A stretch of DNA of 14,968 nucleotides, from the IMG/VR virus record IMGVR_UViG_3300010413_000285; one strand, 5' to 3'. Below, piece by piece: positions 3,638-4,937 of the stretch. Position 1 is the stretch's first letter, and every line of letters starts with the position of its first letter. The position numbers and the translations under genes were made by a program. The notes under the pieces are model-generated. The model was not told the origin of the DNA and did no database searches. It saw only the letters and a list, made by a program, of their open reading frames with translations. The DNA comes from a virus.

Positions 3638-3855
3638 TGAAATATAAGAACGGCTTTATTTCAAGTTCAAGTTCAAATAGTTTCATTACATTCACTCCAG
3701 ATAGTCATTTCAACCATAAAAAAGAAGTCAAGAACAATGACGGCTTGGACTTTTGTTTTATGTGCGGGCAACCAACTAAAAAGATTCCAGGTGTACTTGC
3801 CAGAGAATTCTATTGCGTCTGTCAAAACCCAAACTGTGAATGGTATAAGAACTAA
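3637..3855 (+). CDS. paralog 3 of the same family (72 aa) with a C-terminal Cys cluster
   Basis: N-terminus MKYKNGFISSSSSNSF. C-terminus CFMCGQ...CVCQNPNC. TAATG-type junctions on both sides. Confidence 0.6.
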   Translation: MKYKNGFISSSSSNSFITFTPDSHFNHKKEVKNNDGLDFCFMCGQPTKKIPGVLAREFYCVCQNPNCEWYKN

Positions 3856-4937
3856 TGATTAAGATTGTAAAGTCTGAAAGATATAATTATCTGTTCAACA
3901 AAACTACTGGATTCTTTGCTCGATGGGGAGAAACAAAGGAAGACAATCCAGATATGTCTCCCTTTGGACCTGAGATTGCAGATATTGAAATTTCTACTGT
4001 ATGTCATGGCATTGGAAACTATATGGATTCTAGAAAGCCATGTCCGTGGTGTTACAAATCAAATACTGGATGCGGAATTAATATGTCTCTTGACACATTC
4101 AAAACTGTATTCCACAAACTACCAAGAAATCTAACACAGATTGCATTTGGTATTGGTGATATTGATGGAAATCCTGATCTCTGGCGTATCATGGAGTATT
4201 GTAGGAGCAACAGCTACAATAGTATTGTCCCTAATATTACAGTTAATGGCATGGGTGTGGATAAAGAAGTCTCGAAAAGATTGGCCGACCTATGCGGCGC
4301 TGTCGCTGTTAGTCGCTACCATATTAGTGATGTGTGCTACAATGCTATTAGCAATCTTAGCGAGGGTGGGCTGAAACAAGTAAACATTCATCAATTGCTG
4401 GCCGCTGAAACGTATGATAGCTGCTTTCGACTATTGGAGGATACACAAAAAGACGCTAGGCTCAGTGGGCTTAATGCCATTGTTTTCTTAATGTTGAAGC
4501 CTAAGGGAGATAGAAATAAATATCACGCTATTGATGGCATGAATAAATTCAACAAGCTTATCAAGACCGCTCAAGATATGGGTGTGTCTGTTGGAATGGA
4601 TTCGTGTACTGCTCCTTTGATGTTTAAGTTTGCTGAAGCGTTTGATCAACCTGGTATTATTCCATCCATTGAGCCGTGCGAAAGTACATTATTCTCAATT
4701 TATATTAACGCTGATGCTGAAGTATTTCCATGCTCTTTTACTGAAGGAACTGAAAAGTGGGAGCGTGGTATTTCAATGTTGGAAGTTAATGATTTTATGA
4801 AAGAGGTGTGGTTTGGACAAAGGCTTAGCGAATGGCGAGAGAGTTTGATGGCATCCTCTAAGGGATGTAATCAATGCACTATGCAAATTCATTGCCGTTC
4901 ATGTCCTGCGTTTGATATCACACAATGTAAGGAATGA
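3855..4937 (+). CDS. radical-SAM/SPASM-like Cys-rich enzyme with a non-canonical Cx12Cx2C cluster (360 aa)
   Basis: C50-x12-C63-x2-C66 (nt 4002-4052) sits where CxxxCxxC normally does. Downstream lie a GGEP-like Gly-rich motif FGIGDIDGNPDL and a TNG-like ITVNGMG. The C-terminus has 7+ Cys (DSCTAP, EPCES...FPC, CNQCTMQIHCRSCPAFDITQC), resembling a SPASM/twitch auxiliary-cluster domain. Confidence 0.5.
   Translation: MIKIVKSERYNYLFNKTTGFFARWGETKEDNPDMSPFGPEIADIEISTVCHGIGNYMDSRKPCPWCYKSNTGCGINMSLDTFKTVFHKLPRNLTQIAFGIGDIDGNPDLWRIMEYCRSNSYNSIVPNITVNGMGVDKEVSKRLADLCGAVAVSRYHISDVCYNAISNLSEGGLKQVNIHQLLAAETYDSCFRLLEDTQKDARLSGLNAIVFLMLKPKGDRNKYHAIDGMNKFNKLIKTAQDMGVSVGMDSCTAPLMFKFAEAFDQPGIIPSIEPCESTLFSIYINADAEVFPCSFTEGTEKWERGISMLEVNDFMKEVWFGQRLSEWRESLMASSKGCNQCTMQIHCRSCPAFDITQCKE

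Follow-up and report, generated by a model that had tools for sequence, protein, structure and literature searches.

Peptide and protein maturases of the radical S-adenosylmethionine (SAM) superfamily that carry SPASM or twitch domains (SuiB, SkfB, CteB, PqqE and ChlB, and anSME/AtsB) are the described enzymes closest to the product of the gene analyzed here, which lies at 3855..4937 (+ strand, ATG start, 360 aa) in a 14,968-nucleotide viral sequence (IMG/VR record IMGVR_UViG_3300010413_000285; the whole stretch is hereafter called the window). Three genes directly upstream of the enzyme gene (2868-3855) encode small proteins that share an N-terminal peptide, M-K-x-R/K-x-x-F-[VI]-S-[NS]-S-S-S-x-S-F, hereafter called the tag. 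The reading favored here, at a probability of about 0.6, is that the enzyme, with a 9-residue insertion in its cluster-binding loop, modifies these co-transcribed tagged proteins. The substrate tag is probably M-K-[IV]-R-x-G-F-V-S-N-S-S-S-[ST]-S-F, of which the window holds three copies directly upstream of the enzyme.

The locus differs from the SPASM/twitch maturases in the spacer between the first two cluster cysteines (C1-C2; 12 residues here and 3 there), the absence of a detectable RRE (the recognition element of RiPPs, peptides made by ribosomes and modified after translation), the number of putative substrate genes (up to 12 per locus) and its phage genome setting. The conserved motif forms the extreme N-terminus (16 residues) of proteins of 70-270 aa, and every solved member is only marginally similar in sequence, a PDB search by phmmer and the family profile returning SkfB only, at an expectation value (E) of 0.055. 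The (C/S)xPxR sulfatase motif was absent, which places the locus outside the anSME/AtsB group. Among expanded-loop radical SAM enzymes, QueE carries CX14CX2C with the canonical site retained and the loop extended (PMC4389238), and classes from CX4 to CX11 are listed by RadicalSAM.org (PMC9477430); the window enzyme likewise keeps the cluster site and lengthens the C1-C2 loop.

FxSxx-COOH/FxsB systems combine a radical SAM-SPASM enzyme with rapidly diverging small F-x-S-x-x proteins and adjoin STAND-type NTPases (Kaur et al., 2020; PMC7159879). The tag contains F-V-S-N-S and so recalls these and the triceptide systems, but the FxsA motif is C-terminal and released by a zincin, whereas the tag is N-terminal and has no conserved neighboring peptidase. 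The NCBIfam FxsB model gave no match to the window enzyme at E≤1, and the resemblance appears to be one of kind, without homology shown. The KpAvs2 anti-phage operon comprises three genes, encoding Avs2, the radical SAM protein Avap1 and the small protein Avap2; Avap1 is not viperin-like in its pocket or behavior, Avap2 binds Avs2 and matches DUF6375 by HHpred, and the roles of both were left open (Bechon et al., 2024; PMC11564622). Cellular relatives of the window enzyme are likewise encoded with an Avs2-type STAND NTPase and a small protein, but in operons of four genes rather than three, and the phage loci carry no STAND gene. A literature string search found no paper mentioning the tag strings SNSSSSSF or FVSNSSS, and neither the enzyme-tag module nor its connection with Avs2-type operons appears to have been described in the literature searched.

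Tagged proteins encoded beside the enzyme

Tagged protein 1 (2868..3152, + strand; 94 aa, GTG start, N-terminus MKVRDGFVSNSSSASF) is one of 20 members, in 19 loci, of the C-terminal subfamily found most widely. Tagged protein 2 (3149..3637, + strand; 162 aa, N-terminus MKIRTSFVSNSSSSSF) has a C-terminal domain conserved in 9 loci, and tagged protein 3 (3637..3855, + strand; 72 aa, N-terminus MKYKNGFISSSSSNSF) continues into a Cys-rich, zinc-ribbon-like C-terminus. Stop and start codons overlap at the junctions between genes from 2868 to 5434 (TAATG, ATGA), joining them in one translationally coupled string. In 2000 shuffles the expected number of matches to the tag pattern was 0.0, and the window has 3. 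Both AGY and TCN codons encode the Ser residues of the tag, which points to selection at the level of the peptide rather than of a DNA repeat.

Tagged proteins were scanned against Pfam, NCBIfam, PHROG and PADLOC without a match other than phrog_7397, which covers residues 1-36 alone of tagged protein 2. An AlphaFold2 model of this protein (21 homologues) reached a predicted local distance difference test (pLDDT) score of 88, with residues 1-10 at 38 and the confident fold beginning with a strand at residues 13-20; Foldseek found no PDB match to the model with E<1. Exposure and flexibility are thus predicted for the residues that are conserved most strongly in this protein, and the combination of disorder with highest conservation at residues 1-10 fits a linear recognition or modification motif. 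Proteins of the 162-aa subfamily also share a strongly conserved C-terminal pattern, E-Y-S-D-N...A-M-E-H-G-D-L-F...P-H-x-x-S-S-N-H (alignment A2), which looks like a candidate metal-binding or catalytic motif. Two of the window tagged proteins were searched against cultured phages by tblastn with no match, a weak negative since the low-complexity filter masks the Ser run.

Conservation of the tag family across loci

Eighty related viral loci were scanned for tag genes within 6 kb of the radical SAM gene. At least 71 of the 80 carried them, 1-12 each and often abutting the radical SAM gene, and all 224 tagged open reading frames (ORFs) obtained by ORF calling lay on the same strand as the enzyme gene. 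When 1767 ORFs were clustered all-vs-all, only one family besides the enzyme, that of the tag, was common to more than 7 loci. Among the 224 tags, the residues of the first half were retained as M1 in 221, K2 in 220, R4 in 223, G6 in 218, F7 in 223 and V8 in 212; those of the second half as S9 in 224, N10 in 222, S11 in 224, S12 in 224, S13 in 208, S15 in 219 and F16 in 209. Beyond the tag, the proteins (72-269 aa) fell into 98 BLAST clusters, with ~15 recurrent subfamilies. Reciprocally, stretches holding the tag DNA pattern also held the radical SAM family in 47 of 118 viral cases (irregular chunks of 1-15 kb) and in 67 of 118 cases from bacterial and archaeal genomes (stretches of ≤8 kb). 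A functional link between the enzyme and the tag family is considered highly probable.

The tag family is massively expanded in some jumbo-sized phages. Loci L013, L076, L081, L228 and others each contained 10-12 tag genes within 6 kb; L013, L106 and L145 derive from one contig (IMGVR_UViG_3300037067_001739), on which further tag copies occur in other chunks.

The enzyme and its cluster-binding motif

The initial annotation, made from the letters of the window, had proposed a radical-SAM-like enzyme in which CX3CX2C is replaced by C50-x12-C63-x2-C66, with GGE-like and TNG-like motifs and a Cys-rich, SPASM-like C-terminus. Recounting of the translation agreed with the ORF and with the motif, which occupies 4002..4052 (+ strand; loop residues 51-62, GIGNYMDSRKP region). 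The GGE-like SAM-binding motif region (FGIGDIDGNPDL, residues 98-109) was located at 4146..4181 (+ strand) and the TNG-like motif (ITVNGMG, residues 128-134) at 4236..4256 (+ strand), both falling on invariant alignment columns. Conservation was counted in two alignments, one of 200 family members made with MAFFT and a separate one of 60 sequences. Cys was found at position 50 in 199/200 members, at 63 in 199/200 and at 66 in 200/200, an invariance that excludes a chance Cys pattern, and Y67 and K68 were invariant in the same alignment. In the GGE-like region Q95, A97, G99 and G101 were invariant among the 60 sequences, with Q95 in 199, A97 in 200 and G99 in 200 of the larger set; in the TNG-like region P126, N127, T129 and G132 were invariant among the 60, and N127 and T129 invariant or nearly so among the 200.

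The spacing of the window enzyme is not the canonical CX3CX2C, and relatives with a spacer of 3 exist. BLASTP alignments were made to P0029 (64% identical, C-SFG-C-SW-C) and to the cellular relative L274 (30% identical, C-EKE-C-SF-C). In each case C50, C63 and C66 fell on the canonical triad, with a single clean 9-residue gap in the homologue within the C1-C2 loop. The C1-C2 spacer was 3, 6, 7, 12 or 13 among the 120 closest homologues (all ≥50% identical) and 3, 6, 7, 8, 11, 12, 13, 14 or 17 across 81 loci; 39 independent Cx12 relatives conserved the loop sequence. The unusual spacing is therefore real, but Cx12 is not fixed in the family. On these alignments the Cx12 loop is a canonical CX3CX2C loop with a 9-residue insertion of polymorphic length, and C50, C63 and C66 would converge on one cluster site, as asked of the triad in the initial annotation. 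The insertion also accounts for the failure of the PF04055 model to detect the window enzyme. QueE, the precedent cited for an expanded spacing, is borne out by the published report given above, and because expanded loops are documented across the superfamily, the Cx12 motif by itself is a modest variant. More of the interest of the locus comes from the enzyme-tag module and its link to Avs2-type operons than from the spacing of the cysteines.

In one relative, P0068, a mini-intein of ~140 residues (CLPAYELV...LTHN) sits exactly between F65 and C66, which makes the third cysteine of the cluster motif the +1 extein nucleophile; the gene call of P0096 apparently starts inside such a mini-intein. 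Inteins typically sit in essential active-site motifs.

Family membership, fold and SPASM domain

Profile searches with the window enzyme itself gave weak results. PF04055 gave no match at E≤1 in a Pfam scan, PF13186 (SPASM) reached 20.6 bits against a cut-off of 21.5 (residues 275-342) and TIGR04085 reached 21.8 bits against a cut-off of 27; the only strong profile match was phrog_7293 ('unknown function'), of which the enzyme is a member (E 9e-80). Relatives were recognized by the same models at E<0.01, 44/60 by PF04055 and 43/60 by PF13186, and one cellular relative scored 55.6 bits with PF04055 against a cut-off of 29.5. Of the profiles proposed for checking, PF04055 thus missed the window enzyme and the SPASM models stopped short of their cut-offs, whereas most of the relatives examined were matched. 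The family comprises 3488 database proteins. Homologues were present in 172 cultured-phage records at ~40% identity, mostly T4-like phages of Klebsiella, Enterobacter and Cronobacter.

The model of the window enzyme showed a partial (beta/alpha)6 TIM-barrel, and the radical SAM fold proposed in the initial annotation was recovered by structural comparison. The comparison figures were 23.7 for SuiB (308 residues aligned), 21.4 for SkfB, 20.1 for anSMEcpe, 19.5 for CteB, 19.1 for TigE, 19.0 for ChlB, 17.5 for PqqE, 17.2 for EpeE and 10.6 for QueE, and Foldseek agreed with this picture. Neither a QueE-type core lacking a SPASM domain nor close structural similarity to QueE was found.

The SPASM region was placed at 4605..4928 (+ strand) on the PF13186 and TIGR04085 scores and on Cys conservation. 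Its cysteines, which confirm the Cys-rich C-terminus noted initially, are spaced C275-x17-C293 and C338-x2-C341-x5-C347-x2-C350-x7-C358, preceded by C251. The textbook seven-Cys motif, which binds two auxiliary clusters, is CX9-15GX4C...CX2CX5CX3C...C, from which the window enzyme deviates at two spacings (x17, x2); the family consensus contains G-x4-C, and the window enzyme has A at the G position. C251, C275, C293 and C350 were Cys in 200/200 family members, whereas C338, C341, C347 and C358 were present in just 57-82% of relatives. By analogy with anSMEcpe, we take C251/C275/C293/C350 to be ligands of auxiliary cluster I and C338/C341/C347/C358 to be ligands of cluster II, which would give the window enzyme the full seven/eight-Cys SPASM complement and make many relatives twitch-like. 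On the profile matches of relatives, the invariance of the triad, the aligned insertion and the intein position in P0068, the gene almost certainly encodes a true radical SAM enzyme belonging to the SPASM/twitch class.

Cellular counterparts and Avs2-type operons

A four-gene operon containing both the tag and the enzyme was found in Lachnobacterium bovis, Veillonella parvula and Acetatifactor muris, in Sulfuricurvum and Verrucomicrobiota metagenome-assembled genomes and on megaplasmids of Agrobacterium, Rhizobium and Rhodobacter. The operons were thus distributed over Bacillota, Campylobacterota, Verrucomicrobiota and Alphaproteobacteria. Gene 1 encodes a STAND NTPase of 800-925 aa (PADLOC Avs2, E 1e-12 to 1e-17) whose N-terminal domain is trypsin-like or SMEK, the latter by record annotation of an Agrobacterium pAt protein. 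Gene 2 is an ORF of ~120-143 aa with no assigned function, gene 3 encodes one tagged protein of 131-138 aa and gene 4 a radical SAM/SPASM enzyme with the canonical spacer (examples at L274:28-4251, L222:3597-7189 and beyond, and L322:2556-7008). A STAND protein of ~845 aa was carried by 15 cellular loci. Neither the window nor the phage loci contained a STAND gene; the adjacency was seen in cellular relatives only.

Among the loci listed, those of Bacillota and Sulfuricurvum carry the tag as MKIRxGFVTNSSSTSF; Agrobacterium has MKLKMDFVSNSSSTSF, and all versions share the core F-V-(S/T)-N-S-S-S-(S/T)-S-F. Variants of the tag track enzyme clades: FVTNSSSTSF goes with cellular relatives that share 30% identity with the enzyme of the window, and MKLKMDFVSNSSSTSF pairs with Agrobacterium pAt enzymes that are 44.7% identical to the Lachnobacterium cellular enzyme.

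Possibly the cellular operon and the accessory genes Avap1/Avap2 of KpAvs2 represent one module. PF19902 was searched by HMMER with no match in the tagged or ~140-aa proteins, the published Avap2 match having come from HHpred. Plasmids were searched through the cellular radical SAM protein, which recovered the Agrobacterium, Rhizobium and Rhodobacter operons but no Avs2 operon from Klebsiella. One match, on an E. coli plasmid, was rejected as an unrelated radical SAM.

Proposed reaction and biological role

If the tagged proteins are modified by the enzyme, its reduced [4Fe-4S] cluster would cleave SAM to the 5'-deoxyadenosyl radical, which would take a hydrogen from one of the exposed tag residues, the F-V-(S/T)-N-S-S-S core being the likeliest region. 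The auxiliary cluster or clusters would then finish an oxidation or a cross-link, and a wide range of C-terminal effector domains would in this way receive one and the same modification from a single enzyme. Candidate chemistries would be a Ser-to-formylglycine-type oxidation, as in anSME, a cyclophane between Phe7 and Ser9, as made by FxS-type triceptide maturases, an ether cross-link and an epimerization. To our knowledge, anSME/AtsB is the sole radical SAM/SPASM group acting on Ser side chains of whole proteins.

The biological role probably lies in phage-host conflict, given that Avs2-like STAND operons contain the cellular counterpart. A broader interpretation is tentative, at somewhat less than even odds: that this is an undescribed modification system of phage-host conflict in which one enzyme serves a 16-residue tag grafted on dozens of unrelated effectors, the bacterial enzyme-tag pair being an accessory module of Avs2-type systems, possibly Avap1/Avap2, and the phage arrays being its ancestral source or mimics or decoys.

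That the tag is the substrate of the enzyme was judged somewhat better than an even chance on gene neighborhood and conservation, and several points weigh against it. No RRE or PqqD-like leader-binding domain was detected in the enzyme with Pfam or NCBIfam. The putative substrates are of 70-270 aa with the conserved part N-terminal, unlike classical RiPP precursors; the locus falls outside the classical RiPP class on these grounds, its partners of 72-269 aa including at least one that is confidently folded. Part of the tag may be structural, since residues 13-20 of tagged protein 2 were modeled as a core strand. Finally, the T4-like Klebsiella phage KP15, whose homologue (40% identical) is the best among cultured phages, encodes it amid hypothetical proteins throughout, with no tag gene in the 63 kb scanned, so that the enzyme-tag link is not universal across the wider family.

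Alternative explanations

Rather than a substrate, the tag could be a docking or targeting handle, directing proteins to the capsid or serving as an adaptor that brings the variable C-terminal domains, or what they target, to the enzyme, with the enzyme acting elsewhere. The tandem arrays, in which polymorphic C-terminal domains follow one unchanging N-terminal peptide, resemble the T4 internal proteins in layout; the disorder of residues 1-10 in the AlphaFold2 model fits as well. A small accessory protein with a binding role also has a precedent in Avap2, which binds the STAND protein of KpAvs2 (PMC11564622). A packaging signal would, however, be unexpected in chromosomal and plasmid four-gene bacterial operons, and a substrate role is favored by the strict co-occurrence and co-variation of the tag with an enzyme for which all of the nearest relatives in structure are peptide-acting; the handle explanation is therefore regarded as unlikely.

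An action on a small molecule or nucleic acid (QueE- or viperin-like, or on tRNA or DNA), with the tagged proteins as unrelated neighbors in a hyperplastic phage region, was considered improbable. It draws on the three tRNA genes in the window, on viperins, MoaA and BlsE among the fold matches, and on PADLOC pVip models that match the N-terminal radical SAM core of a cellular relative; the QueE loop analogy made in the initial annotation points the same way. A catalytically dead radical-SAM-like relic, its cluster binding destroyed by the insertion and a structural role left, is very improbable: the missing PF04055 match and sub-threshold SPASM scores would suit it, but the three Cys and flanking motifs are invariant in every spacer class, the loop was modeled at high confidence (pLDDT 88-95, residues 51-70 of the window enzyme), the 39 independent Cx12 relatives keep the loop sequence, and expanded loops are compatible with activity (QueE CX14CX2C, PMC4389238; CX4-CX11 classes, PMC9477430).

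Significance of the enzyme-tag module

With modification of the tagged proteins as the favored reading, phrog_7293, a family of >3,400 members of 'function unknown' in environmental and cultured large phages, gains a testable function. A second unannotated family, the tagged proteins, is defined by well over 200 examples in the sampled loci. The variation in loop length from 3 to 17 among relatives indicates that the loop is structurally permissive. The cellular operons offer a hypothesis for the radical SAM gene and small protein in some Avs2 immune operons, whose roles the published study left open. If true, one enzyme reading a 16-residue N-terminal tag on arbitrary domains would be an attractive handle for protein engineering.

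Other features of the window

The window was assigned to a phage on its PHROG matches, its gene organization, its three tRNA genes and the occurrence of relatives on IMG/VR contigs of 50-550 kb; it contained no phage structural genes. Immediately downstream of the enzyme, an ORF of 166 aa (4934-5434) is coupled by ATGA to the radical SAM stop codon and has a Cys-rich hydrophobic N-terminus (LLFIVLCCFCCG) with no family match. It was found in one near-identical contig (L003) and is not a conserved member of the module. Two downstream ORFs, at 5379-6374 and 6457-6966, contain HExxH zincin-like motifs (HELMHLMGLPDEY and MVRKHELRHCKDQ); the first shows a weak M6-domain match (E 5e-4) and the second follows a hydrophobic N-terminus. 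Both are reminiscent of the zincin peptidase in FxSxx peptide-processing systems, but neither is conserved beside the radical SAM gene in the 80 loci.

Other ORFs with assignments encode a YunG-like protein (1550-1900), a calcineurin-like metallophosphoesterase (PF00149; 1893-2621), a DEDD-type exonuclease-like protein (phrog_192; 7279-7848) and a Nudix hydrolase-like protein (12034-12564); all other window ORFs tested gave no family match. The whole window and the enzyme gene were searched at the nucleotide level against 50,697 phage records, with no relative save a tRNA-Asp-like stretch of ~80 nt. Genes for tRNA-Arg (TCT), tRNA-Leu (CAA) and tRNA-Asp (GTC) lie at 8032-8107, 9177-9264 and 11392-11470 among small + strand ORFs. 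Within the window, nucleotide similarity to any cultured phage record was confined to the tRNA-Asp region (84-86% to Staphylococcus phage assemblies).

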